From assembly GCA_030295235.1 (NCBI GenBank), contig AP026164.1:1054001-1118000 (forward strand): a stretch of 64,000 nt of DNA. The letters run 5' to 3'. This document shows positions 8,662 to 31,400 of this stretch, piece after piece. A program made the translations under genes and the position numbers. Source of the stretch: Fistulifera solaris (taxonomy: Eukaryota). The notes beneath the pieces are model-generated. The model saw only the letters and a program-made list of their open reading frames with translations, made no database searches and was not told where the DNA came from. Each line of letters opens with the position of its first letter. The stretch's first letter is position 1.

Positions 8662-11240
8662 TTACTGCCCGAGCGTTGATGATTCCGACAGATCAGCAAC
8701 ATTATCTGCTTTGCCTCTCTTCTTAGCCCTCTCTTCTCGAGAGGGGGCGACGTCCACTAAATCTCCGATGGGCTTATATCGTTTTCGCGAAAAGTTTACC
8801 AAGTCGCGAAACTCTTTCCCATCAGCAGCTACAGCATAAGTGCAGTAAACAACTGGGCGAATCGAACTGCTTGTATTTGCAAGACCTCGATGTCCTAGTC
8901 GATAGTCGAACACGATTGGAGTGCCCGCTGTGACGCTCGGTGTAAATAAGAATTCATTGTCGAGATCTTCGTTACCAAGAATGTGGCTTCCAAGACAAAA
9001 CTCAGTTCCTTGGTTGGTCAGATCCACAAGAGGAACGAAGACATTGATTGCATGGCACGGTTTTTGATATTGGCTGGTCAAGTGCACCCCATCTTGGTGG
9101 TAGTTCTGTTTCTCGGCCCCCGGCATGGCGAGAAATATTCCCTTGTGAATTAAGCAAACTTCTTTTCCCAGTATTTCTTTCACGACTGGCATCCATGGTG
9201 CCTTCTTCAAATCAGTAAGGAAGCCGAACTCAGGATTGTCGAACTGAGGTAGCTCCATGTCAAATCTGCCCCGACCCCGTTCTCGGAAAAGATCAAATCC
9301 ACCTTGTAGCTCTCTAGCCAAGTCTCTTACTCTAACAGTCCGCATAATTTGTTCATAGTGATTAACACATGCGTCATGGCACAATTTGATCTGGTCGTCG
9401 TTTAGACAGAACTTCTTTGAATGCCCATCGCATAAGAGCTCCTTTCTTTCTTCGCGACTTGTGCAGGGGCTATCCCGAGACGATTTATGCAAGCACAAAG
9501 GGGTGACTATCCTTTTCACAGAGTCTTCCGCAATGTTAGAATCTGAGTCATCTAGTCTTTCGAATGGCCTAGAAAGAGAGGACATATGGGGTTGTGCATT
9601 GACCAAGGTTGCCGCCCCATCATGTCCGTTTATTAAGACTCAGAAAATTCCTTTGCTTGGGTATCCCATTCTTTTCTTTCTTCTTCTGGCAATTTCTTCC
9701 AAATTGTACGAAGCTCGTTTTCGGCGTCTCGAAGAGTAAACGAAATCTTAGCCCTCGATAAATCGTTGCTGCGTTTGAATTTTGGTTCAGGAGGTTTCAC
9801 CACTGTCACCGATCCTGTGACTGCGGTACCATTGTCCTCAGAATCAGAAACATTAATCACTTTATTCACACCAGAGCTCCTGTCATACGTGGCTGAGCGA
9901 TCCTCTGCGATAGTGCTTGTTGTATGCGCGGTCACAGCCTCATCGCCTGCAATGATGACATCGCTTGGCCTTTTGCAATCAGGAGACAAAATACTGTCAA
10001 ATGTATCTACATTCTTCCCATCATCACTAGGATCTTCTTTCGACATTGTACCATCACAACTGCGACTCGATTGACTGAGAACGTTCGGGTGATAAACTCC
10101 TACTTGCACGTCAACGATATCACCAGTCGCTCCGGATACCTTTGCTTTTTTCAACTCGTTCAACCGCCCTTCACGGTGTTCTTTTCTTTTACACTGTAGA
10201 AAATAGGTCAATCCAGTGACTCCTCGATTATTCGAAGACGGAAGAGGTGCAGATTCGTTGGCATCTTGGAACGATCGATTCCTTTGCCAATTCTCTTCCT
10301 GTCCAACAACCCAAAGTCCATCCCTTTCGAAACGAAGTCTACCCGCATCCATCACGATTTTGCGGGAAAGAGAATTGACTTTGAGGGGCTTTCCGTTACC
10401 TCCCACACCCAGCAAGGCTTTGTCAATGGTTATTTCCTGCTTACATAGCTCAACTGCACGGTCCCATGCCGCTTTCCGACTAGCGAAAGTTTCTCGTAGA
10501 GGAGATATCCACTTGGTCGATATGCGGGGGAGAGGTACACGCCATCGCTCCTGCAACGCTAATTCCGAAATAACAGATGGTTCTCGCTCTTGAAGCATCT
10601 GAATTATCTTATCCTCGCCAGAGAGTGACTCCTCTTCGGAGCAAGACTCATCGCCGGCTTCTTCTTTGCTGGTTGCTTTACGACTAGATGAAGACGGACT
10701 CGAAAATCCTGGAAAGCGAGGAGGGTCTGGTATCTTTTCTATGATATGCGGCCAAGCTGCCAACTCGAGGACTCCCTTATAAAATCGAAAGTATGGGTAT
10801 TTCTGCGCAGCCTTAGTTTCGGTCGGCAACGGATCCTGGACTCGTACTTGGACTTTCCACGGTCGACCACCGTAAGTGGGAAGGAGTTGTTCTTCCCATC
10901 GCTCTAATGCTTTCGCGGCCCGATCGTAGGCTTCTTCGCGGGCGTTTGGCGCTATTACAGAATACGATGTGGTAAGTTTCCCATCAAGCAAGTAATTTGT
11001 AAAGCACCACTAAAACTTACCATTGACCTTCAAAAGATACTTTCGGGCTGCATTAAATGGCGATTTTGCTTTCTTTTCGGCTTGCCGAATATCTTGGATG
11101 TTGGCTGCTGTAATCCATACTTTTTCCCCGGTTTTGGGGCATTCGAGATAAAGAGGTTCTGTTTTGCGATACAATAACTTGCGCTCGGGCTTTTTCGGTT
11201 GCTTTGTTTTGGGTTTCACGCTGACCTTTGGTTCAGGTTT
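8662..11240 (-). CDS. Multi-exon protein with a C-terminal PhyH-like 2OG-Fe(II) dioxygenase domain and a possible HMG-box-like helix
   Basis: YHQDG...INVFVPLVD...GTEF...FDYRLGHRG in 8662-9606. ORF 9633-10991 joins it by one missing T near 9634. GT-AG intron near 10952-11020. The 5' end extends further upstream and is unresolved. Confidence 0.7.
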
Positions 11241-12038: not shown

Positions 12039-13179
12039 TTACTTTTCTTTCCTATGTACAATTCCGCCACCGATGGTATACTTTCCGTATTCCTTCCGAG
12101 GGTCGTAAACTTCCCAGCGGCCTGTGTTCCGGATAGACTTATATGAAAAAGGTATGTTGATTCGCAATCGCACCTCCAAGTCGACTTTACTTACTAGCTG
12201 GAAAGATATGTTTATTGCGTTCATACCAACGCCGCTCGGCAACTTTACCCGGGTGACTCTCATCTTTTTCAACTCTTGAATCAATTGCACCGATTCGAAC
12301 ATCATCGTGAACGTCAAAATGGAATAGCGGCCCCGACTTGCCCCGTGCTTTGGTTGCGATCAGATCGTAGAAGGTCATATCCTGAGGAATAATCAAATCT
12401 TCTTTGACGTAGATCAACGCGTCCGCCGAGATGTTGGCCAGCTCCTTAAACTCTTTGGCAAGATCTAGTCGTACTTGCTCTAAAAAGTCCCCAATCGTAT
12501 CGCCCTTTTTACACACGACGTTTCGACGATGGCCGGATCCGTCCCAATAACTATAAATAATTTCCAATTGTTGTTGCTTCATAGCCTCTTGCTTTTCTTT
12601 CCACTCTTGCTCCAAACGTTTCTTTTCCTTCTCAGCTTCTTCTTCGCGGTGCTTGTCAGGTAAGAAAGATGTGTCGACGGACGGATCTTTCTTGACGAGC
12701 CTTGTCGGCGGCTCGGCATTGTCGTCACAGTTCTTATCATCATCATCATCATCATCATCATCGTCATCAAACTCCTGTCCGAACGACAGCGTAGATAACA
12801 TCTTTTTCTTTAAGTTCTTCTTTTTCTTTTGCTCTTTCTTCGTTTTCTTCTCGCGTAATTTCCGCTCCTCCTCCGTTTCCGTGACTAACTCCTTCTCGAC
12901 GGGTTGATTGCGTTTCTCTTCGATGGCCTTGAATTCTTCCGCCGAAAGCAAACCAATCGTTTCTACCGCCGTATCTTTTGTCGTCCCTCCCGCAAACTTG
13001 GCATCCAAAAGAGCGGGGCCTCTCTGAGAATTACTAATTTGTTGTTTCCGGGCCAGAAAAGCTTCTTGATCGAGCTGCCGCTTGCGTTCGAATTGGGCGG
13101 CCCGACTTCCGGCGATATTACCTTCGACGGTACGGATCCCTGCATCTGGGCGTTTGAAATTGGCTTGGAAGTCTCCCAT
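12039..13179 (-). CDS. XAP5: XAP5 / FAM50 family nuclear protein, the only complete copy (intron 12122-12194)
   Basis: [51 protein letters not shown]. Splicing the GTAAGT...CACAG intron restores HIFPASRWEVYDP. Confidence 0.95.
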
Positions 13180-13354
13180 GTGCCTTTGTTGATGTTGAAG
13201 ATAGGCAAAATTTGGGAGTCAAGAAAATAGTTTGACACGATTTGTTCCCTTGTCGCCAGTGCAAGAATAAAAAGACAACCACTCCATGCTGGTGGACCTG
13301 GCAGACGCCGAAAGCCGTCTTTCTCAATAAATTTTCGCGTTTCGTCGTTCGCAC

Positions 13355-14281
13355 AAACACCACACCCCCATATTTTCTGGGTACGTGAAAACACCACACG
13401 CCCAAATTTTCTGGGTACGTGAAAACATTACATTCCCATATTTTCTGGGTACGTGAAAACACCACACGCCCAAATTTTCTGGGTACGTGAAAGCACCACA
13501 CACCCATATTTTCTGGGTACGTGAAAACACCACACGCCGAAATTTTCTGGGTACGTAAAACATTACATTCCCATATTTTCGGGGTACGTGAAAACACCAC
13601 ACCCCATATTTTCCGGGTACGTAAAACTACCACACCCCCATATTTTCCGGGTACGTGAAAACCACACCCCATATTTTCCGGGTACGTGAAAACACCAATC
13701 GCCCATATTTTCTGGGTACGTGAAAACACCACACGCCCAAATTTTCTGGGTACGGGAAAACACCACGCACCCATATTTTCTGGGTACGTGAAAACACCAC
13801 ACGCCCAAATTTTCTGGGTACGTGAAAGCACCACACACCCATATTTTCTGGGTACGTGAAAACACCACACGCCGAAATTTTCTGGGTACGTAAAACATTA
13901 CATTCCCATATTTTCGGGGTACGTGAAAACACCACACCCCCATATTTTCCGGGTACGTAAAACTACCACACCCCCATATTTTCCGGGTACGTGAAAAACC
14001 ACACCCCCATATTTTCCGGGTACGTGAAAACACCAATCGCCCATATTTTCTGGGTACGTGAAAACACCACACGCCCAAATTTTCTGGGTACGGGAAAACA
14101 CCACGCACCCATATTTTCTGGGTACGTGAAAACACCACACCCCATATTTTCCGGGTACGTGAAAAACCACACGCCCATATTTTCCGGGTACGTGAAAACA
14201 CCAATCGCCCATATTTTCTGGGTACGTGAAAACACCACACTCTCAAATTTTCTGGGTACGTGAAATCACCACACGCCCATA
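13355..14281. repeat. 34-bp minisatellite array, copy 1 (~27 units plus a partial unit; consensus TGAAAACACCACACGCCCATATTTTCTGGGTACG)
   Basis: Direct read of 31-34 bp units sharing an ATTTTC(T/C/G)GGGTACG core. Confidence 0.97.
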
Positions 14282-14354
14282 CCAATAAAAGATATGCGGT
14301 GACGGCCGCCTGTTGTGAGTTGTGATAGGCGGAAAAGTTTACTGAATACTAGTA

Positions 14355-14545
14355 AATCCCCAGATTTTCTGGGGAGGTGGCAAAAGCAGACAACCAGATT
14401 TTTTGGGCACTTCTTAACACCACATCCCCATATTTTCTGGTTACGTGAAAACACCAGATTCCCAGGCTTTCTGGAGACACGTAAAGAACCACACCCCCAG
14501 ATATTCTGGGGGATTGACAGTCCCAGATTTTCTGGGGACGTGACA
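14355..14545. repeat. Degenerate tail of the 34-bp satellite (~5-6 decayed units); also present in copies 2 and 3
   Basis: Recurrent CCCAGATTTTCTGGG / CCCATATTTTCTGG cores and ACGTGAAAACACC. Confidence 0.75.
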
Positions 14546-14678
14546 CGTGCGAATACACAGTAGCAAGTTATTGCCGTGATGGCGGATACCGGTAGATGAT
14601 GAATGATGATTGATGATTGATGATCAAGATAAATAAAAGAAAGTCGCTCTTATTAATATCCTTTCCATCAATCTGTAC

Positions 14679-15521
14679 ATGAATATTCTTCACGGAAGAA
14701 AAGCATTGCAAAACTTTCTGCAATCACAAAAAGCCCACTTCGGAGCAGCTCCAATTTTAATAGTTGAAAGCAAGCCACTCAATGGAGTCGAGAACAAGCA
14801 AGTCGATGAAGTCTGTCGATGGACTCGTTTCGTCTTGCAGCAGCAACTGGGATTCCGTACGGTAGTTTATCATTCACAACACTTGTTTCCAACCTTGTCG
14901 GATCAGCAACAAGCCTTCGAAATGGCATCGCGTGTGGGTGCATCGACAGTCGCGGCGGTCGGTTCCGGGAGTGCGGTGGATCTAGGGAAAAGCATGTCGT
15001 GGGCGGAAGATCGGATATTGATGCCCGCGACACCCACTGCGATTCTGGCGGCCGGATCATCTCATTCGCTCATTTATGATTTGGCGGAAGATACGCTTGT
15101 ACCAATAGAACAAAAGAGAGGAGGAACGATTGCTTTGATGCATTCCAAGACAGATCAAGTGCAGGAGGCGCTGTATGCGTGTCTGGCGATCGCGATTGAC
15201 AACTTCGTTCAGGGAACCAGCAGAGATTCTACTTTTGCAGATGATGTGCTGAGGATGATCAAGGAAAAGACATCGAAGGTGGAAGATGCGGAGGATTTGC
15301 TTATTCGAAGTGGTCAATCATTACGTTACGGTCTAGACGAAAACAATCGCTCCATCCCGTTAGCGATTGTTTCCAGTCTGTCACAAACGAGCTATCAAGC
15401 TATTCTGCTATGGGTGTCATGGCCAGTTTAGTTCCATCTTTGGTAAACGTACTTCCAGACAAGTACTCCTTCGACTTTGACAAGGAATTGCTAGACGCAG
15501 CTCCTCGAGCAATCACATCGT
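14679..15521 (+). pseudogene. Fe-ADH-like gene copy 1, 3'-truncated at the duplication junction
   Basis: Nearly identical to 21315-22157; -1 T near 15378; runs into antisense XAP5 sequence after 15522. Confidence 0.7.
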
Positions 15522-16492
15522 TAAGATATGTTTATTGCGTTCATACCAACGCCGCTCGGCAACTTTACCCGGGTGACTCTCATCTTTTTCAACTCTTGAA
15601 TCAATTGCACCGATTCGAACATCATCGTGAACGTCAAAATGGAATAGCGGCCCCGACTTGCCCCGTGCTTTGGTTGCGATCAGATCGTAGAAGGTCATAT
15701 CCTGAGGAATAATCAAATCTTCTTTGACGTAGATCAACGCGTCCGCCGAGATGTTGGCCAGCTCCTTAAACTCTTTGGCAAGATCTAGTCGTACTTGCTC
15801 TAAAAAGTCCCCAATCGTATCGCCCTTTTTACACACGACGTTTCGACGATGGCCGGATCCGTCCCAATAACTATAAATAATTTCCAATTGTTGTTGCTTC
15901 ATAGCCTCTTGCTTTTCTTTCCACTCTTGCTCCAAACGTTTCTTTTCCTTCTCAGCTTCTTCTTCGCGGTGCTTGTCAGGTAAGAAAGATGTGTCGACGG
16001 ACGGATCTTTCTTGACGAGCCTTGTCGGCGGCTCGGCATTGTCGTCACAGTTCTTATCATCATCATCATCATCATCGTCATCAAACTCCTGTCCGAACGA
16101 CAGCGTAGATAACATCTTTTTCTTTAAGTTCTTCTTTTTCTTTTGCTCTTTCTTCGTTTTCTTCTCGCGTAATTCCGCTCCTCCTCCGTTTCCGTGACTA
16201 ACTCCTTCTCGACGGGTTGATTGCGTTTCTCTTCGATGGCCTTGAATTCTTCCGCCGAAAGCAAACCAATCGTTTCTACCGCCGTATCTTTTGTCGTCCC
16301 TCCCGCAAACTTGGCATCCAAAAGAGCGGGGCCTCTCTGAGAATTACTAATTTGTTGTTTCCGGGCCAGAAAAGCTTCTTGATCGAGCTGCCGCTTGCGT
16401 TCGAATTGGGCGGCCCGACTTCCGGCGATATTACCTTCGACGGTACGGATCCCTGCATCTGGGCGTTTGAAATTGGCTTGGAAGTCTCCCAT
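15513..16492 (-). pseudogene. XAP5: XAP5 copy 2, lacking the final exon (ends HILTM*), plus a -1 indel near 16172
   Basis: ORFs 16124-16492 and 15513-16115 match XAP5 copy 1 up to the junction. Confidence 0.85.
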
Positions 16493-16666
16493 GTGCCTTT
16501 GTTGATGTTGAAGATAGGCAAAATTTGGGAGTCAAGAAAATAGTTTGACACGATTTGTTCCCTTGTCGCCAGTGCAAGAATAAAAGACAACCACTCCATG
16601 CTGGTGGACCTGGCAGACGCCGAAAGCCGTCTTTCTCAATAAATTTTCGCGTTTCGTCGTTCGCAC

Positions 16667-17595
16667 AAACACCACACCCCCATATTTTCTGGGTACGTGA
16701 AAACACCACACGCCCAAATTTTCTGGGTACGTGAAAACATTACATTCCCATATTTTCTGGGTACGTGAAAACACCACACGCCCAAATTTTCTGGGTACGT
16801 GAAAGCACCACACACCCATATTTTCTGGGTACGTGAAAACACCACACGCCGAAATTTTCTGGGTACGTAAAACATTACATTCCCATATTTTCGGGGTACG
16901 TGAAAACACCACACCCCCATATTTTCCGGGTACGTAAAACTACCACACCCCCATATTTTCCGGGTACGTGAAAACCACACCCCATATTTTCCGGGTACGT
17001 GAAAACACCAATCGCCCATATTTTCTGGGTACGTGAAAACACCACACGCCCAAATTTTCTGGGTACGGGAAAACACCACGCACCCATATTTTCTGGGTAC
17101 GTGAAAACACCACACGCCCAAATTTTCTGGGTACGTGAAAGCACCACACACCCATATTTTCTGGGTACGTGAAAACACCACACGCCGAAATTTTCTGGGT
17201 ACGTAAAACATTACATTCCCATATTTTCGGGGTACGTGAAAACACCACACCCCCATATTTTCCGGGTACGTAAAACTACCACACCCCCATATTTTCCGGG
17301 TACGTGAAAAACCACACCCCCATATTTTCCGGGTACGTGAAAACACCAATCGCCCATATTTTCTGGGTACGTGAAAACACCACACGCCCAAATTTTCTGG
17401 GTACGGGAAAACACCACGCACCCATATTTTCTGGGTACGTGAAAACACCACACCCCCATATTTTCCGGGTACGTGAAAAACCACACGCCCATATTTTCCG
17501 GGTACGTGAAAACACCAATCGCCCATATTTTCTGGGTACGTGAAAACACCACACTCTCAAATTTTCTGGGTACGTGAAATCACCACACGCCCATA
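16667..17595. repeat. 34-bp minisatellite array, copy 2 (same unit order as copy 1)
   Basis: Direct read of the units. Confidence 0.97.
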
Positions 17596-17992
17596 CCAAT
17601 AAAAGATATGCGGTGACGGCCGCCTGTTGTGAGTTGTGATAGGCGGAAAAGTTTACTGAATACTAGTAAATCCCCAGATTTTCTGGGGAGGTGGCAAAAG
17701 CAGACAACCAGATTTTTTGGGCACTTCTTAACACCACATCCCCATATTTTCTGGTTACGTGAAAACACCAGATTCCCAGGCTTTCTGGAGACACGTAAAG
17801 AACCACACCCCCAGATATTCTGGGGGATTGACAGTCCCAGATTTTCTGGGGACGTGACACGTGCGAATACACAGTAGCAAGTTATTGCCGTGATGGCGGA
17901 TACCGGTAGATGATGAATGATGATTGATGATTGATGATCAAGATAAATAAAAGAAAGTCGCTCTTATTAATATCCTTTCCATCAATCTGTAC

Positions 17993-19026
17993 ATGAATAT
18001 TCTTCACGGAAGAAAAGCATTGCAAAACTTTCTGCAATCACAAAAGCCCACTTCGGAGCAGCTCCAATTTTAATAGTTGAAAGCAAGCCACTCAATGGAG
18101 TCGAGAACAAGCAAGTCGATGAAGTCTGTCGATGGACTCGTTTCGTCTTGCAGCAGCAACTGGGATTCCGTACGGTAGTTTATCATTCACAACACTTGTT
18201 TCCAACCTTGTCGGATCAGCAACAAGCCTTCGAAATGGCATCGCGTGTGGGTGCATCGACAGTCGCGGCGGTCGGTTCCGGGAGTGCGATGGATCTAGGG
18301 AAAAGCATGTCGTGGGCGGAAGATCGGATATTGATGCCCGCGACACCCACTGCGATTCTGGCGGCCGGATCATCTCATTCGCTCATTTATGATTTGGCGG
18401 AAGATACGCTTGTACCAATAGAACAAAAGAGAGGAGGAACGATTGCTTTGATGCATTCCAAGACAGATCAAGTGCAGGAGGCGCTGTATGCGTGTCTGGC
18501 GATCGCGATTGACAACTTCGTTCAGGGAACCAGCAGAGATTCTACTTTTGCAGATGATGTGCTGAGGATGATCAAGGAAAAGACATCGAAGGTGGAAGAT
18601 GCGGAGGATTTGCTTATTCGAAGTGGTCAATCATTACGTTACGGTCTAGACGAAAACAATCGCTCCATCCCGTTAGCGATTGTTTCCAGTCTTGTCACAA
18701 ACGAGCTATCAAGCTATTCTGCTATGGGTGTCATGGCCAGTTTAGTTCCATCTTTGGTAAACGTACTTCCAGACAAGTACTCCTTCGACTTTGACAAGGA
18801 ATTGCTAGACGCAGCTCCTCGAGCAATCACATCGTTAAGATATGTTTATTGCGTTCATACCAACGCCGCTCGGCAACTTTACCCGGGTGACTCTCATCTT
18901 TTTCAACTCTTGAATCAATTGCACCGATTCGAACATCATCGTGAACGTCAAAATGGAATAGCGGCCCCGACTTGCCCCGTGCTTTGGTTGCGATCAGATC
19001 GTAGAAGGTCATATCCTGAGGAATAA
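17993..19026 (+). pseudogene. Fe-ADH-like gene copy 2, 3'-truncated and fused in frame to an antisense-XAP5-derived tail
   Basis: ORF 18148-19026 ends ...[13 protein letters not shown]...SYPEE*; -1 A near 18043 relative to copy 1. Confidence 0.7.
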
Positions 19027-19814
19027 TCAAATCTTCTTTGACGTAGATCAACGCGTCCGCCGAGATGTTGGCCAGCTCCTTAAACTCTTTGGCAAGATCT
19101 AGTCGTACTTGCTCTAAAAAAGTCCCCAATCGTATCGCCCTTTTTACACACGACGTTTCGACGATGGCCGGATCCGTCCCAATAACTATAAATAATTTCC
19201 AATTGTTGTTGCTTCATAGCCTCTTGCTTTTCTTTCCACTCTTGCTCCAAACGTTTCTTTTCCTTCTCAGCTTCTTCTTCGCGGTGCTTGTCAGGTAAGA
19301 AAGATGTGTCGACGGACGGATCTTTCTTGACGAGCCTTGTCGGCGGCTCGGCATTGTCGTCACAGTTCTTATCATCATCATCATCATCATCATCATCGTC
19401 ATCAAACTCCTGTCCGAACGACAGCGTAGATAACATCTTTTTCTTTAAGTTCTTCTTTTTCTTTTGCTCTTTCTTCGTTTTCTTCTCGCGTAATTTCCGC
19501 TCCTCCTCCGTTTCCGTGACTAACTCCTTCTCGACGGGTTGATTGCGTTTCTCTTCGATGGCCTTGAATTCTTCCGCCGAAAGCAAACCAATCGTTTCTA
19601 CCGCCGTATCTTTTGTCGTCCCTCCCGCAAACTTGGCATCCAAAAGAGCGGGGCCTCTCTGAGAATTACTAATTTGTTGTTTCCGGGCCAGAAAAGCTTC
19701 TTGATCGAGCTGCCGCTTGCGTTCGAATTGGGCGGCCCGACTTCCGGCGATATTACCTTCGACGGTACGGATCCCTGCATCTGGGCGTTTGAAATTGGCT
19801 TGGAAGTCTCCCAT
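18827..19814 (-). pseudogene. XAP5: XAP5 copy 3, lacking the final exon (ends HILTM*), plus a +1 A near 19118
   Basis: ORFs 19080-19814 and 18827-19129. Confidence 0.85.
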
Positions 19815-19988
19815 GTGCCTTTGTTGATGTTGAAGATAGGCAAAATTTGGGAGTCAAGAAAATAGTTTGACACGATTTGTTCCCTTGTCGCCAGTGCAAG
19901 AATAAAAGACAACCACTCCATGCTGGTGGACCTGGCAGACGCCGAAAGCCGTCTTTCTCAATAAATTTTCGCGTTTCGTCGTTCGCAC

Positions 19989-20917
19989 AAACACCACACC
20001 CCCATATTTTCTGGGTACGTGAAAACACCACACGCCCAAATTTTCTGGGTACGTGAAAACATTACATTCCCATATTTTCTGGGTACGTGAAAACACCACA
20101 CGCCCAAATTTTCTGGGTACGTGAAAGCACCACACACCCATATTTTCTGGGTACGTGAAAACACCACACGCCGAAATTTTCTGGGTACGTAAAACATTAC
20201 ATTCCCATATTTTCGGGGTACGTGAAAACACCACACCCCCATATTTTCCGGGTACGTAAAACTACCACACCCCCATATTTTCCGGGTACGTGAAAAACCA
20301 CACCCCCATATTTTCCGGGTACGTGAAAACACCAATCGCCCATATTTTCTGGGTACGTGAAAACACCACACGCCCAAATTTTCTGGGTACGGGAAAACAC
20401 CACGCACCCATATTTTCTGGGTACGTGAAAACACCACACCCCCATATTTTCCGGGTACGTGAAAAACCACACGCCCATATTTTCTGGGTACGTGAAAACA
20501 CCACACGCCGAAATTTTCTGGGTACGTAAAACATTACATTCCCATATTTTCGGGGTACGTGAAAACACCACACCCCCATATTTTCCGGGTACGTAAAACT
20601 ACCACACCCCCATATTTTCCGGGTACGTGAAAAACCACACCCCCATATTTTCCGGGTACGTGAAAACACCAATCGCCCATATTTTCTGGGTACGTGAAAA
20701 CACCACACGCCCAAATTTTCTGGGTACGGGAAAACACCACGCACCCATATTTTCTGGGTACGTGAAAACACCACACCCCCATATTTTCCGGGTACGTGAA
20801 AACCACACGCCCATATTTTCCGGGTACGTGAAAACACCAATCGCCCATATTTTCTGGGTACGTGAAAACACCACACTCTCAAATTTTCTGGGTACGTGAA
20901 ATCACCACACGCCCATA
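19989..20917. repeat. 34-bp minisatellite array, copy 3 (units 14-15 differ from copies 1 and 2)
   Basis: Direct read of the units. Confidence 0.97.
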
Positions 20918-21314
20918 CCAATAAAAGATATGCGGTGACGGCCGCCTGTTGTGAGTTGTGATAGGCGGAAAAGTTTACTGAATACTAGTAAATCCCCAGA
21001 TTTTCTGGGGAGGTGGCAAAAGCAGACAACCAGATTTTTTGGGCACTTCTTAACACCACATCCCCATATTTTCTGGTTACGTGAAAACACCAGATTCCCA
21101 GGCTTTCTGGAGACACGTAAAGAACCACACCCCCAGATATTCTGGGGGATTGACAGTCCCAGATTTTCTGGGGACGTGACACGTGCGAATACACAGTAGC
21201 AAGTTATTGCCGTGATGGCGGATACCGGTAGATGATGAATGATGATTGATGATTGATGATCAAGATAAATAAAAGAAAGTCGCTCTTATTAATATCCTTT
21301 CCATCAATCTGTAC

Positions 21315-22273
21315 ATGAATATTCTTCACGGAAGAAAAGCATTGCAAAACTTTCTGCAATCACAAAAGCCCACTTCGGAGCAGCTCCAATTTTAATAGTT
21401 GAAAGCAAGCCACTCAATGGAGTCGAGAACAAGCAAGTCGATGAAGTCTGTCGATGGACTCGTTTCGTCTTGCAGCAGCAACTGGGATTCCGTACGGTAG
21501 TTTATCATTCACAACACTTGTTTCCAACCTTGTCGGATCAGCAACAAGCCTTCGAAATGGCATCGCGTGTGGGTGCATCGACAGTCGCGGCGGTCGGTTC
21601 CGGGAGTGCGATGGATCTAGGGAAAAGCATGTCGTGGGCGGAAGATCGGATATTGATGCCCGCGACACCCACTGCGATTCTGGCGGCCGGATCATCTCAT
21701 TCGCTCATTTATGATTTGGCGGAAGATACGCTTGTACCAATAGAACAAAAGAGAGGAGGAACGATTGCTTTGATGCATTCCAAGACAGATCAAGTGCAGG
21801 AGGCGCTGTATGCGTGTCTGGCGATCGCGATTGACAACTTCGTTCAGGGAACCAGCAGAGATTCTACTTTTGCAGATGATGTGCTGAGGATGATCAAGGA
21901 AAAGACATCGAAGGTGGAAGATGCGGAGGATTTGCTTATTCGAAGTGGTCAATCATTACGTTACGGTCTAGACGAAAACAATCGCTCCATCCCGTTAGCG
22001 ATTGTTTCCAGTCTTGTCACAAACGAGCTATCAAGCTATTCTGCTATGGGTGTCATGGCCAGTTTAGTTCCATCTTTGGTAAACGTACTTCCAGACAAGT
22101 ACTCCTTCGACTTTGACAAGGAATTGCTAGACGCAGCTCCTCGAGCAATCACATCGTCTTCAATCGAATCATTATTGGCGCACATTCGTGACAATCAAGG
22201 CGCGACGGGATGCTACGACATTTCTGAGGAAAAACTTCGCAAAGTTCTGCAGTTTCACACGGTCAATTCGTGA
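21315..22273 (+). CDS. Iron-containing alcohol dehydrogenase / dehydroquinate-synthase-like superfamily protein (divergent), the only copy with a native 3' end
   Basis: VAAVGSGSAMDLGKS resembles the GGGSxxDxAK motif and ILMPATPT resembles the IPTT motif; apparent -1 A near 21365 relative to copy 1. Confidence 0.6.
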
Positions 22274-22589: not shown

Positions 22590-24515
22590 TTATCGAGTTC
22601 GTCGAAGCATGTAATAGGCTGCAAATCGGAACACTACCTGCAAACCAAACACCATGCCAATGTTGAACCAGTAGCTTTCAGTAATACCCGTGATTCCCAT
22701 ATCGGCAATTACATCTTCACCGGGGAGAGGGCATGTACCCACGGGGCCTACCTGAACCGAAACATCATCGCTACAGGGAATATCTCTGCCTTCGAACTCG
22801 TTAATGATAAGAGCAGAGTAGCCATATCGAGCAAACGAGAGCCACGTTGCCCATCGAATACCGACGTGAATGCTTTGCAAAGGGATATAGAATCCTCCCA
22901 TGATCATGAAGAACAAAGTAATGGGAGGAGCGAGGACCAATGCCAGCTGGCCGTTGGGCATGATAATGCTGATAAACAAACCCATACTTTGAGCCGTAGA
23001 GAGCGACATGTAGAAAGCAAGGATAAAACGAACATATGCCAGGGTCGAAACACGAAAGTTGGCAGTCCAATACACGGCCATGCCATACAAAAGAGGGAAC
23101 AAAACATTATTTGTCATGTCCGACATTGTCTTGGCCAAGAAGTAACTTGCCACACCGTACATTTTCTTTGCTCTTTCTCGGCGAAGCAACGCTCGTTCCC
23201 GCTGAAAAACAGTTACTGCGTTGATGACCACACCATTTGCTTGAGCAATAAGCATAAAGAAGAGAAGAGAATTTCTTTCATAGATACGGGCGGTATTGTC
23301 TGGTAAGTGCCACCAAAACAGTGCCGTGAAGAATAGATAAACGAGTTGAAGGATAGCCGCAGTCGTGGTCAACCGTTCCCCTCTCTGTTGCTTTAACGTT
23401 CGTACTGTTAGCAGCTTCAGTTGTGTCCAGAAAGTCACATCATACTTTGGCGCCGACTGCAATTCTTCCAGCGTGCTCAAGCGACGTCCCAGCCTCGATT
23501 GTTCCCTCTGTGTCAGGTCTACACATCCAGTCTTGCTGGAGCAGTCACTCCAATACTTGGCCAAAGTACGCTCGCCCTTTCGCTCATCATCCGTAATAAT
23601 ATCCATCAGCCAGTCGGCAATTCCTGTTTCCGGAGGCAACGGAGCGACGGTAGGGCAACTCTCTAAATAAGCTCTCGCGCTGGAAGGTTTTCCGTCAAAT
23701 ATGGCTCGACCTTTGCTCAACAACAACAAATGATCGAACATGTTGTAAATAGTCGTCCGAGGTTGATGAATCACAACCGCAATAGAATGGCCGAGAGCAG
23801 CTAGATCTTTCAAAGTGGTCATGAGCGAGAGAGCAGTCGTTGCATCCAAACCGGAGGTCGGCTCGTCCAACAAAAGAAGCGACGGCTGCACAACGAGTTC
23901 CACGGCCACGGAAACACGCTTCCGTTCTCCTCCACTTACGCCTCTTACTGCGGAAAGGGGACTCCCTACCAAGCTATCTCGTACATGCAAGAGACCTAAT
24001 TCTTTCATGGTGCTCTCGGTTAATTCTCGTACCTGCGAATCGGGTGTCTCTTGCGATGTTTTCAGACGCGCCGCAAAGTAAATGTTTTCTTCTACCGTTA
24101 AATTCGACAACAGCAAATCATCTTGCCAGACCACGCCCACCAGTCGCTTGGGGATCGACCCTTCCTCTCCGTTTACTGTAATGACGCTGTCGTCGATCAA
24201 ATCGTGTGGCCTCGTCAGAGCAGCAGCCACACTGATTAAACTCGTCTTACCGGAGCCAGAGGGCCCCATCCATGCCGTCAATTGATAGGGAGAGATTTGC
24301 GTGGTAATGTTATGCAAGATGGTCGTGCGCTGTGTTTGCGTTTGATTCGAACCGATCACGGCCGACTTTGTGAACGGAGCGTATGTCACATTTTCCATCC
24401 GGAGCTCGACTTGAGGAACAGATCGCGTCTGTTTGATACTGGAGTGGCGAGATAGATTCTGAGAGCCATCATCCTCATCGTTACGTTCATTTTGAGGCGA
24501 CATCACTGCTGTCAT
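22590..24515 (-). CDS. ABCG: ABCG (White-type) half transporter
   Basis: Walker A GPSGSGKT, signature VSGGERKR, Walker B LLLDEPTSGLD, IHQP, then a C-terminal ABC2 membrane domain. Confidence 0.95.
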   Translation of the reverse strand: MTAVMSPQNERNDEDDGSQNLSRHSSIKQTRSVPQVELRMENVTYAPFTKSAVIGSNQTQTQRTTILHNITTQISPYQLTAWMGPSGSGKTSLISVAAALTRPHDLIDDSVITVNGEEGSIPKRLVGVVWQDDLLLSNLTVEENIYFAARLKTSQETPDSQVRELTESTMKELGLLHVRDSLVGSPLSAVRGVSGGERKRVSVAVELVVQPSLLLLDEPTSGLDATTALSLMTTLKDLAALGHSIAVVIHQPRTTIYNMFDHLLLLSKGRAIFDGKPSSARAYLESCPTVAPLPPETGIADWLMDIITDDERKGERTLAKYWSDCSSKTGCVDLTQREQSRLGRRLSTLEELQSAPKYDVTFWTQLKLLTVRTLKQQRGERLTTTAAILQLVYLFFTALFWWHLPDNTARIYERNSLLFFMLIAQANGVVINAVTVFQRERALLRRERAKKMYGVASYFLAKTMSDMTNNVLFPLLYGMAVYWTANFRVSTLAYVRFILAFYMSLSTAQSMGLFISIIMPNGQLALVLAPPITLFFMIMGGFYIPLQSIHVGIRWATWLSFARYGYSALIINEFEGRDIPCSDDVSVQVGPVGTCPLPGEDVIADMGITGITESYWFNIGMVFGLQVVFRFAAYYMLRRTR

Positions 24516-24940
24516 CGTCGTGTTTTGAATGAAATGCTATTATTGTGCGCCTTTCCATTTCTCCGAAACATTGAATGCTGATTGCTGATCGATGATCTGG
24601 TGCGGACTTTTGCGGACGAGAGAATTCCAACGAAGCACAAGAAAACCGCCAACCTCTCCGCTCCTGCTCCTGCGTCATGTTCAGCAAATGGGATCCTACA
24701 GCCTACAGTCTACGTCGTACTACGTGTTTTAATGAGTACCGCTACACTATCGTAGAATCACACAGTATGATATAAGAAACCAACATCGACCTTGGTTGTT
24801 TAACAGACACAGAACGGAATGAAAATGCTTCGTATCTCCAATCCGTCCGCGCCGGCCGATACCCACCGCAACTCTTTTGCACGACGTGCAATCACGCAAA
24901 CAAAACAAGGAGGACAAGAATTTTTCGTCAAAAGTAAACG

Positions 24941-28495: not shown

Positions 28496-31400
28496 CTAAG
28501 GGCATGAGCGATCTCCGCAGCAATTACATTCGATGTTACAACCCACACTCAATTCTTCGAGCTTTCCCAAACCAGTGCCGCGCCTGCTGCATAGAGCTGT
28601 GGATACCGCACCACTTAAAAGAGGATTATTCCCTAGTCTTAGTAACTCTGAAATTGTAAATAAGTCAGGCACGAATCGAAGTTATGTTGAATCTTGCCGA
28701 TGCACGTACCCAATATCATTAGATCATCAAACGCAACTGGGATGACTCCAGAAAAGTTATTGCCGTCTAAGCTAAGTTCCATAATGGTTGCATTCAGCCC
28801 GCGGAAATCTTCTGACAGCTCACTCCCAAAATTGGCGTTCGATAAGTGAAGCTCGCTGAGGACGGGGAGACGGAAGAGTTCATTAGGTAGTTCTCCCGAC
28901 ATACTCGTATTTCCTAGGTTCAAAACACGGAGGTTGGTCATTAAGGATATGCTGCTCGGTAAACTGCCTTCGATATCATTACCGGCGAGCTGCAGTTCTT
29001 GTAAGTTACCATTGTAAATCTCCGTGGGAATCGAGCCAGAAAACTTGTTATTCTGCAAATTCAGGATCTCTGCCACAAACCAAACTGTCAGAGCAAATGG
29101 CGACGGGCGAGATTATCAAGAGCTCAGTGACCTTACCTAATTTCGGAGCAAGCCCCATTTCAGACGGAATTTGACCAGACAGTCCGTTTCCTTCAAGCAG
29201 AAGCGTTGTTAAGTTGTCGAGTTTGGCCAAGGAAGTAGGTAAGCTGCCTTTGATGCCATTACGAGCCACGTTAAATAATGCTAGATTCGGATGGGCATCG
29301 ACAGCGAGTGCAGAGATGTCACCCGTAAAAGAGTTACCTTCCAAATACAAGCTTTCAAGTTTCGCGAGAGTTGAAAACACAGACAAAATGCCGCTGGTTT
29401 TACGATTCCTTGGTAAATGAAACAACTTGAGATTAGATAATTTCCCGATTTCGGCTGGCAAACGAGAGTTTAGCACAAAAACTTCATCAGGACCGAAAAA
29501 CCCTGCTCAAACTCTCTTTCAGCTTGTTCTGTTTAACACGAAAGAATGAGATTGACAGTTAAAATCAGACACAAAAAACTTCATTTTCACCACATACCGA
29601 AATTCAATTTCTCGATTATACCGTTGTCATCGCATCCAACGGCCGCCCAGTCACATTCGTCTGTTGTCGAAAGCCATGATTGTTCACTAGCATAACAAGT
29701 TTTTTGGAGATTGCACTGATTCCAAGAGTCACCATTCATAGCGAAGTAAAACACAGCAAGAATGTACCGCTGAAGGAGTTTGGCTTCATTATCCTGCAGA
29801 TTATCGTAGTCATCCGTTGAAGCTATCCACTTCGCAGCTTTGTTCTGCACAGATTCACGATTTCGTAGTACTGAAATATCTGTGATGGCAGATAAACGCT
29901 CAAGCAGCAAAGGAAAAGACGCGCTGGTGGGTGCAGCAGAAGGAGCAGGAGTTGGAGGGTCGGTTGCAATGGTCTCTTCCTCGCTGTTGTTTGAAAGGAG
30001 GACCGCGGGAACGACAGCAGCTATCACAACTAACACTAAAAGGGCCGCGCCATAACATACGAGCCTTTTGATGCTTCGACGTTCCCACTCTGCGTTAACT
30101 TCATCTTTTCCTGAAATAACGGCTACACCAGTTGCATCAACGACGGTCTCAGCGAAAAAAGGTACACCTGGGTTGGCAAGTGCCGGCTGTTCTGGGTCAG
30201 GGTCATTTCTTGCAGAATTCGGTCCCGAAATGTCTTCCGAGATAGGTGAAGGTGGCACGTCAACTCCCAGATGATCGGGCTCGGAAGCATAATCCCCGTA
30301 ACTGAATTGGGGTTTCCAGTCGTTTTCTGCATCTATGGCTTGAAAGTCAAGAGACGGTACTGTTCGATCTGTGCTTGCCATCTCAACAGACTGAGTCTTG
30401 CTCAAGAGATCTGTAATCGTTGACGAAGGACCCTGAAACTGCATACCCTTACTCGACGCCAAGCCTTGAGCATTTCCTTGTTCATAGTGCAAACCTTGAC
30501 GTTGTGGTGCATGTTTACGAACTAAATCTTGCTCGAGCTGTTGCAAAGAGGTCGACATACCGACCGCGACAGCACCAGGTTTTGCTGCAACGGCTCCTCC
30601 CGCCTGTCGCTTTGTTGCGATGCCTTGCTCCAATGCTTGCAAAGTGTTTCGACCACCAGCTCCAGCCTGCTTCGCGTGAATGTCACGTTCTAGCTGTTCC
30701 AGCGCATTGGTACCGATCGCGACAGCTCCGGGCGTTGCTGCAGCGCTTGCACCCACTTGTCGCTTAGTAGCAATATCTTGTTCTAGTGATTGTAAGTTGT
30801 TTCGCCCGACACTCGCAGCTTGCTTTACGTGTAAGTCACGTTCTAGCTGCTCCAATGAGGTTGAAGGGCTGACCGCGACGGCCCCGGGTTTGGCTGCAAC
30901 ATTTCCACCCGCCTGTCGCTTGGTCGCAATGTCTTGCTCTAACGCTTGCAAGGTGCTGTGCCCAACAGACGCGGCTTGCTTTACGTTCAAATCACGTTCT
31001 AGCTGTTCCAACGAAGAAGAAGCACTAACTGCGACGGCTCCGGGCGTAGTAGCAGAGTTTGCCCCCGCTTGCCGCTTTGTAGCAAGATCTTGCTCCAGCG
31101 CCTGCAAGGAGTTTCGCCCAGCACTGCCTGCCTGCTTGGCGTTTATGTCACGCTCTAGCTGTTCCAAAGAAGACGACGCGCTAACCGAGACGGCCCCCGG
31201 TAACGTAGCACGACTGGAAACCTGCAGCTTTGCATTTGAAGTGCGGTCGGAACCGCCCACACTGACAGCACCGGGCATGGTAGCCGCCGCCGTCGGTCGA
31301 TTCTGTTGTTTCGAAACTATATCTTGCTCCAACTTCTGGACCTTTTCAAGTTGCGTGCCCGCAGTGGTAGTCTCTCCTTCGTTGGCAGACTGACCTTGAG

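Follow-up and report, generated by a model that had tools for sequence, protein, structure and literature searches.

How did a segment that begins and ends inside two neighbouring genes come to stand as three tandem copies in an allodiploid diatom, within just one of its subgenomes, and do its extra copies matter? The question is raised by a 64-kb stretch of DNA from the oil-producing diatom Fistulifera solaris, here called the window, in whose positions all coordinates are given. The repeated segment is a 3.32-kb cassette covering the 5′ 92% of a XAP5/FAM50 gene, the 1.5-kb divergent promoter that this gene shares with its neighbour, and the 5′ 88% of that neighbour, an iron-containing alcohol dehydrogenase-like (Fe-ADH-like) gene. 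The cassette is probably a very young tandem triplication in the L subgenome, an ordinary by-product of repair that includes a transcribed XAP5 copy without its tail.

Direct-repeat and offset scans together with a three-way alignment showed a tandem array of three direct head-to-tail units at 12203-15521 (unit 1, 3319 nt), 15523-18835 (unit 2, 3313 nt) and 18837-22157 (unit 3, 3321 nt). The triplication had been proposed between 12203 and 22157 in a preliminary description of the locus; it is confirmed there and is far beyond chance. One untemplated T stands between the end of a unit and the start of the next, at 15522 (junction 1) and again at 18836 (junction 2), and both junctions read ...ACATCGT[T]AAGATATG. 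The left flank runs ...GCTGGA into AAGATATG and the right end ...ACATCGT into CTTCAATC, so that the junction T, as had been noted before, is found in neither parental flank, and the join was made without microhomology. The junction 11-mer occurs in the window at positions 15517 and 18831 only, and both flanks differ from it. Three exact occurrences in the window were found for the first 40 nt of the unit and likewise for its last 40 nt, and a single one for the 40 nt left of the unit, for the last XAP5 exon (12042-12119) and for the 3′ end of the ADH-like gene (22158-22273). Further repeats of at least 150 nt are absent from the 64-kb window, and so are inverted pairs.

Both breakpoints are intragenic and agree with the 8 bp and approximately 115 bp given earlier. 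The left one lies 8 nt (12202-12195) ahead of the last XAP5 splice donor, GTAAGT at 12194, and the right one lies 116 nt ahead of the final base of the ADH-like TGA stop. The two genes are spaced by 1499 nt from ATG to ATG, and this intergenic region with its 34-bp array, 27 repeats in every copy, is indeed present three times. Two further claims are not supported. It had been said that the cassette breaks both flanking genes, but in every tandem duplication the genes at the two edges each keep an intact copy, and nothing is lost. It had also been said that only the promoter is amplified, but the array makes up just 927 of the 3319 nt (28%), and the unit also brings along coding sequence of both genes, 325 of the 355 XAP5 codons in 977 nt and 281 of the 319 ADH-like codons in 843 nt, the truncated XAP5 being expressed. 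A transposable element was considered and rejected: both ends of the unit fall within coding sequence of host genes, inverted repeats are absent, and the junction shows one added nucleotide instead of a duplication.

The minus-strand open reading frame (ORF) at 12187-13218 is XAP5/FAM50 (Pfam PF04921, 147.5 bits against a cut-off of 25, E 5e-43). The complete gene occupies 12039-13179 on the minus strand, with exon 1 from 13179 to 12195, the donor at 12194, a 73-nt intron from 12194 to 12122 and a last exon from 12121 to 12039 including the TAA stop. It equals GAX25377.1 (FAM50, 355 aa), since 329 of 329 residues are identical in exon 1 and the last 26 residues are encoded at 12121-12042; the gene model is fixed because exon 1 and the left-flank exon together give this protein. 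Human FAM50A, as in the solved spliceosome entry 8c6j, matches with E 6.8e-79 and is aligned, residue for residue at this end, through ...KHIFPASRWE.YDP.K...KYTI. The conserved extreme C-terminus FPASRWE.YDP...KYTI is encoded in the last exon (12121-12039) of the leftmost copy only, and both inner copies are without it.

The plus-strand ORF stays below the Pfam PF00465 gathering score (23.5 bits for the window protein against a cut-off of 31.3), and is for this reason labelled Fe-ADH-like only; PF00465 is among the precomputed matches of relatives, and the domain is also named by one source. The only copy with the natural 3′ end lies at 21315-22273 on the plus strand, with TGA at 22271-22273. 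Compared with GAX25378.1 (FisN_5Lh475, 319 aa), the unit 3 ORF has no mismatch in 302 residues downstream of a homopolymer indel, and the first 18 residues of that record are encoded as in unit 1. The expectation of one full XAP5 gene at the left and one full-length ADH-like gene at the right therefore holds for XAP5 and for the natural 3′ end of the ADH-like gene. It does not hold for the ADH-like reading frame as written, which has A4 at 21363, where GAX25378.1 requires A5, and leaves the frame after codon 18, probably through a sequencing error. The exact matches to protein records identify the locus as the XAP5/FAM50 and Fe-ADH-like pair in the L subgenome of F. solaris. The pair of the other subgenome is represented by the consecutive records GAX17088.1 and GAX17089.1, with 93% and 88% identity, respectively.

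Evidence from outside the assembly was drawn from four coded public runs, X1-X4, which belong to one study and one organism label and possibly to the same strain as the window. Their contigs were placed on 14300-16650, the unit circularly permuted around junction 1 with the array left out, and the results are those of the pieces and loose ends listed, beside which there are 44 more pieces and 7 more loose ends. X1 (51.6 Mb of contigs, all 30 bins covered) is of a run type that can be guessed: we took it as DNA, as its contig total equals the published F. solaris genome size and the intergenic stretch is covered. X2-X4, with 12-15 Mb of contigs each, were treated as RNA-like, and carried no RNA label in the run search. 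A metagenome, X5, contains a 0.06 share of the sampled words.

Position 15522 is spanned by single minus-strand contigs in all three RNA-like runs (X2 1126 nt, X3 1138 nt, X4 814 nt) that show no deviating letter. These bridging contigs run from approximately 16400 (16046 for the X4 piece) to 15280 or 15296, and reach 226 nt or more into the ADH side and 520 nt or more into the XAP5 side. Since RNA-like contigs of every one of these runs cross it, the junction is real and not an artefact of assembly. Absence of the junction from reads had been named in the preliminary description as what would speak against the triplication, and the junction is there. A false duplication by haplotype collapse is likewise ruled out by the transcription of the novel junction. 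X1 also has a loose end of 10 letters behind 15521 whose sequence is that of the true right flank, which is the expected graph fork.

The X3 and X4 bridging contigs, two of the three, end in 23 unplaced T's before 15296, which read on the minus strand as a poly(A) tail without a template, and AATAAG is found at 15306-15301, 5-10 nt upstream of the cleavage site. The contigs thus show that a truncated XAP5 copy is transcribed across the junction and polyadenylated at a cryptic AATAAG-type site 226 nt into antisense ADH-like sequence. Its coding part lies at 15513-16492 on the minus strand and consists of 325 native codons followed by Leu-Thr-Met and a TGA stop at 15515-15513; a T2/T3 frameshift at 16172 is present in the window only and absent from the read contigs. 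The 3′ untranslated region of the chimeric transcript, 15296-15512 on the minus strand with poly(A) after 15296, is antisense to 217 nt of ADH-like codons. The chimeric mRNA would encode a 328-residue XAP5 product that lacks the 30 C-terminal residues, RWExYDP...KYTI among them. C-terminal truncations are not mentioned in the passages of the XCT preprint, and Fistulifera is without mention among the listed matches in the XAP5/FAM50 literature.

The second truncated XAP5 copy lies at 18827-19814 on the minus strand and has an A5/A6 frameshift at 19116 in the window. On the plus strand, the first truncated Fe-ADH-like copy (14679-15521) has 281 native codons and would read into antisense XAP5, with T1 for T2 at 15378 in the window, and the second (17993-18835) has A4 for A5 after codon 18 in the window. 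If read through, such a copy would give a protein of 281 of the 319 native residues with a 63-residue antisense-derived tail. X2-X4 have no cover over 14300-15279 and 16403-16650 and allow no inference on ADH-like expression or on transcription starts. The XAP5 poly-Asp stretch is encoded by an (ATC)n run at 12736-12769, 16056-16083 and 19371-19404 that differs between copies by two units, and RNA contigs are cut at this run, so that both lengths may be expressed.

The three copies are almost the same, with 3302 of 3325 aligned columns identical and 23 differing. The differences consist of 11 single-base indels, one 6-nt loss in the ATC run of unit 2, one substitution outside the array, and, at 20440-20473 in the unit 3 array, a cluster of five substitutions together with one of the 11 indels. 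The sole non-array substitution in approximately 2400 columns is at 14976, where unit 1 has G and the others A (Val versus Met). Each copy has one private marker that is not a homopolymer: G14976 in unit 1, two fewer ATC units at 16055 in unit 2, and the replacement of array units 13-14 at 20440-20473 in unit 3. X1 contigs break at 14975/14949, and contigs also break at the ATC run at 16047-16089; these breaks are consistent with real variants.

All ten single-base indels that were inspected singly lie in homopolymer runs. As written in the window, the indels break three of the four truncated gene copies and put the complete ADH-like copy, of which there is one, out of frame with its start codon. 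The short-read contigs have an additional T behind 15378 and another behind 16172 in four of four runs, A5 at 14728 (X1, no gap), an additional A behind 16581 (X1) and no extra A at 15801. They are single-state at all five homopolymer sites checked and keep the frame at the four within genes (14728, 15378, 15801 and 16172); at 14728 and 16581 their state is that of only one of the three window copies. Most or all of the homopolymer indels are probably sequencing errors of the long-read assembly, and because the contigs show the in-frame state and GAX25378.1 needs A5, the frameshifts are probably errors and not decay. Pseudogene decay of the inner copies was rejected accordingly, with the frameshift indels in homopolymers and the contigs in frame, and one true minority frameshift may hide in the contigs. 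A nanopore-only F. solaris assembly made with Canu and nanopolish has been published and may not be the source of the window. Homopolymer length differences stand at 21363, 18041, 15378, 16172, 19116 and 16581 and at array sites, and contigs and protein records are in frame. In gene calls made on the assembly, such errors would break real genes, for instance the only complete ADH-like copy.

A variant path in X1 carries 16403 G>A (synonymous), 16429 T>C (Ile22Val) and 16460 T>C (synonymous) at a depth of 14.4 of 42.7, and is the H copy, because Val22 is the residue of the H homeologue (GAX17088.1). Among the pieces listed, X1 contigs of the L-type unit range in depth from 27.2 to 44.1 and thereby exceed the H path 1.9- to 3.1-fold, contig depth being a measure other than copy number. 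Dosage of the two F. solaris subgenomes is equal (1:1) except for one chromosome, according to passages of a preprint on its genome (bioRxiv 10.1101/2021.11.10.468027). The depth ratio gives a hint that the L unit is present in more than one copy.

The intergenic part of every unit holds 27 copies of a 34-bp repeat, organized in a higher-order repeat of approximately 10 units, with the core CCCAKATTTTCTGGG in each repeat. On the plus strand the array lies at 13355-14281 in unit 1, with degenerate cores continuing to 14536, at 16667-17595 in unit 2 and at 19989-20917 in unit 3. With letters for repeat variants, the arrays read ABACADEFGHAIACADJFKHAILMHNO in unit 1, ABACADJFGHAIACADJFKHAIPMHNO in unit 2 and ABACADJFKHAIPMADJFKHAIPQHNO in unit 3. 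Homopolymer variants aside, the unit 3 array is set apart by an AC to PM replacement of two repeats, which makes its units 13-14 unlike those of the other two arrays. Five to six degenerate repeats on the ADH-like side have an imperfect palindrome core, CCCAGA-TTT-TCTGGG. Each unit has 33 core motifs, and of the 100 matches in the window 99 fall within the cassette. By its looks the array is a minisatellite that arose through expansion of a cis-element in the shared promoter. The degenerate cores at 14359-14536, present also in units 2 and 3, have a better palindrome, CCCAGATTTTCTGGG, followed by ACGTGA-like ends, and suggest that the minisatellite may have grown from a dimer-type binding site of that promoter. 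X1 contigs that match 14359-14536 and then diverge, with loose ends of approximately 250 letters, suggest related motif copies elsewhere, perhaps in the homeologue. The X1 depth of 627.7 at 14379-14457 was not taken as a sign of genomic copies elsewhere, as the 81 units of the array itself account for it. The 22-nt array core had no match in a metagenome scan.

Could the array be a centromere or an origin? Like diatom centromeres and autonomously replicating sequences (ARS), it is non-coding, repeat-bearing and intergenic. Predicted F. solaris centromeres have 36-42% GC with a peak of 100-bp boxes at or below 32% GC, and three consensus centromere/ARS motifs have been published. In contrast, the array has a GC content of 46%, at most one such box is found per 3-kb span across the cassette, none of the three motifs occurs within 3 mismatches in the 64 kb, and the array stands beside an active promoter and is probably part of it. 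A centromere or ARS of the F. solaris type was rejected on both the GC and the motif evidence, and the earlier suggestion of an origin or centromere-like selfish element is not borne out.

The triplication is probably best accounted for in a few steps. The 3.32-kb segment would first have been duplicated in tandem by end joining of one double-strand break, with no microhomology and one T added. The third copy would have come from a homology-driven step between the two copies, in which the junction was copied exactly, most simply by unequal exchange between sister chromatids or homologues. Such steps would leave one intact outer copy of each edge gene and inner copies that are truncated at the 3′ end and keep their promoters. 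A single founding end-joining event follows from the identity of the two junctions, untemplated T included. The preliminary description had also proposed one end-joining event followed by homology-based copying; this is a reasonable reading, and its two routes for the copying, unequal crossing-over and reintegration of a circle, are indistinguishable by sequence. The two subgenomes differ at 3 positions in 58 nt (16403-16460) and by 7-12% at the protein level, and measured against this the event is by all appearance far younger than the divergence of L and H. Most likely the variant has no effect on fitness or a mildly deleterious one, and is not an adaptation that concerns the array.

Tandem segmental duplications that form by non-homologous end joining, expand by unequal crossing-over and leave chimeric or truncated genes at their edges are well known from Drosophila, yeast and human copy-number variants. 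The present locus resembles them in its direct copies, its identical junctions with a 1-nt insertion and no microhomology, its intact outer genes, its promoter-bearing truncated inner copies and its read-through transcript. Head-to-tail copies, a novel junction and the presence of that junction in independent data (from one study, perhaps of the same strain) were all found. It is unlike tandem duplications in general in being confined to one subgenome of an allodiploid diatom and in having a 27-unit minisatellite within a divergent promoter. Origin-dependent inverted-repeat amplification (ODIRA) yields an inverted middle copy, and re-replication-induced gene amplification (RRIGA) joins through flanking repeats. 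With these origin-linked models the locus shares a small unit that is roughly centred on a candidate cis element. It differs from the product of ODIRA, which was rejected, in that every copy has the direct orientation and the window contains no inverted repeat of at least 150 nt, and from that of RRIGA in that the cassette was joined without homology.

Within the species, tandem arrays of LPAAT (five copies) and EAR are described in passages of the preprint as whole-gene arrays, proven by spanning reads and PCR (bioRxiv 10.1101/2021.11.10.468027). These are similar to the cassette in having near-identical tandem units, were invisible in the pyrosequencing assembly, and in the case of LPAAT are also restricted to one subgenome, with unexplained 'highly repeated elements' between the LPAAT copies. 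Unlike the LPAAT and EAR units, which are whole genes, the XAP5/ADH-like cassette has intragenic breakpoints. FAM50, XAP5 and alcohol dehydrogenase have no occurrence in the main text of that preprint.

Several points weigh against a young, neutral triplication produced by repair. The depth ratios of 1.9-3.1 fit two copies as well as three, and the crossing of the junction in X1 is not visible among the pieces listed. In the older annotation GAX25377 and GAX25378 are consecutive single entries, which fits a collapsed repeat or formerly fewer copies. A random pair of breakpoints would only occasionally place the array so close to the middle of the unit, where its arms of 1152 and 1240 nt leave it within 44 nt of the centre. 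X1-X4, being one study and possibly the window's strain, speak to the reality of the junction and have no bearing on other strains or on population frequency. The neutrality of the variant is itself something that we infer.

An assembler that wrote three units where the genome has two or a variable number, with a real junction, would explain the lower depth ratios and the single copy of each gene in the older annotation, and the homopolymer errors of the window are typical of an unpolished long-read assembly. We hold this to be unlikely, because every copy has its own non-homopolymer marker, which would not be expected from an over-expanded two-copy repeat, because some depth ratios reach 3.1, and because, at 10 kb, the region would fit within an average read (11.6 kb) of the published nanopore set, which may not be the window's own. 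A route through a 3.3-kb extrachromosomal circle, closed by end joining with the added T and brought back into the chromosome by homologous recombination, in one or two rounds or as a rolling-circle multimer, seems quite unlikely to us. One closed-circle junction would yield exactly identical junctions, and promoter regions with long repeat arrays, of which the unit carries one, are often found on circles, but the sequence fits circle and unequal exchange alike and a chromosomal junction gives the same reads as a circle.

The array itself might have driven the amplification, the 34-bp palindrome-core minisatellite acting as an origin, fragile site or binding platform that provokes re-replication or breakage and is propagated or selected. 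Its position near the unit centre, the concentration of core motifs in the cassette, the imperfect palindrome in the flanking degenerate copies and the repeated elements between the LPAAT copies, as told in passages of the preprint, point in this direction. The breakpoints, however, lie 1.15 and 1.24 kb off the array, within coding sequence and without homology, 72% of the unit is non-array, the central position is a lone observation made after the fact, and the GC content, low-GC boxes and motif search given above speak against a centromere or ARS; amplification driven by the array is hardly likely. It is very unlikely that the copies are retained for a function, with the tail-less XAP5 as a modified or dominant-negative splicing or chromatin factor, or with convergent chimeric transcripts as double-stranded RNA that tunes both genes. 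For this speak the truncated XAP5 mRNA in all three RNA-like runs, its frame open to the new stop according to the contigs, and the 217 nt of its 3′ untranslated region that are antisense to ADH-like coding sequence. The case is however made at the level of the XAP5 transcript, apart from protein, small RNAs and ADH-side read-through; the family is best conserved at the very end that is missing here, so that loss of function is as likely as a new one, and the duplication is too recent for its sequence to reveal selection. A broader proposal is that in F. solaris palindrome-core minisatellites within promoters act as hotspots and set off tandem segmental amplification around themselves, by fork stalling, breakage or local re-replication, with this locus and the five LPAAT copies as two products and the expressed tail-less XAP5, as a perturbation of a core splicing factor, as the first functional consequence; this we regard as very doubtful.

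Read as a repair product, the triplication is a tidy case of an ordinary kind and does not open a long-standing question. It is of interest as a structural variant of very recent origin that an allopolyploid diatom carries in only one of its subgenomes and that the older annotation hides behind single neighbouring entries. It also documents a tandem duplication with intragenic breakpoints that creates promoter-bearing truncated genes, one of which is already made into a polyadenylated chimeric mRNA, and it offers a small system for the roles of a 27-unit promoter minisatellite and of tail-less FAM50/XAP5.

The arrangement of the gene pair was followed at the protein level. XAP5 and ADH-like, one of each, were found on a shared contig or with consecutive accessions in six loci, four of which are on further contigs beyond L and H, and the divergent pair is therefore a conserved arrangement. 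One NCBI/JGI assembly holds two versions of the pair, P0135/P0140 on a 33,492-nt contig and P0137/P0122 on a 29,971-nt contig. One version is almost identical to the H-subgenome proteins of F. solaris, and the other is clearly unlike the L versions (82% for ADH-like), which hints at a relative that may share the H-type parent and have a different second subgenome. A metagenome scan with P0122 as query gave 151 pattern matches, none of them confirmed.

Around the cassette, the minus strand left of XAP5 carries a 458-residue ORF without a Pfam match and a PhyH-like dioxygenase ORF, at 9633-11009 and 8662-9639, and to the right an intronless ABCG-type transporter is found at 22590-24536, also on the minus strand. 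Further to the right, at 30562-31201 in the most GC-rich part of the window (0.51), a 156-nt sequence is repeated in tandem in 4.1 copies (73% matches), probably as a coding repeat.

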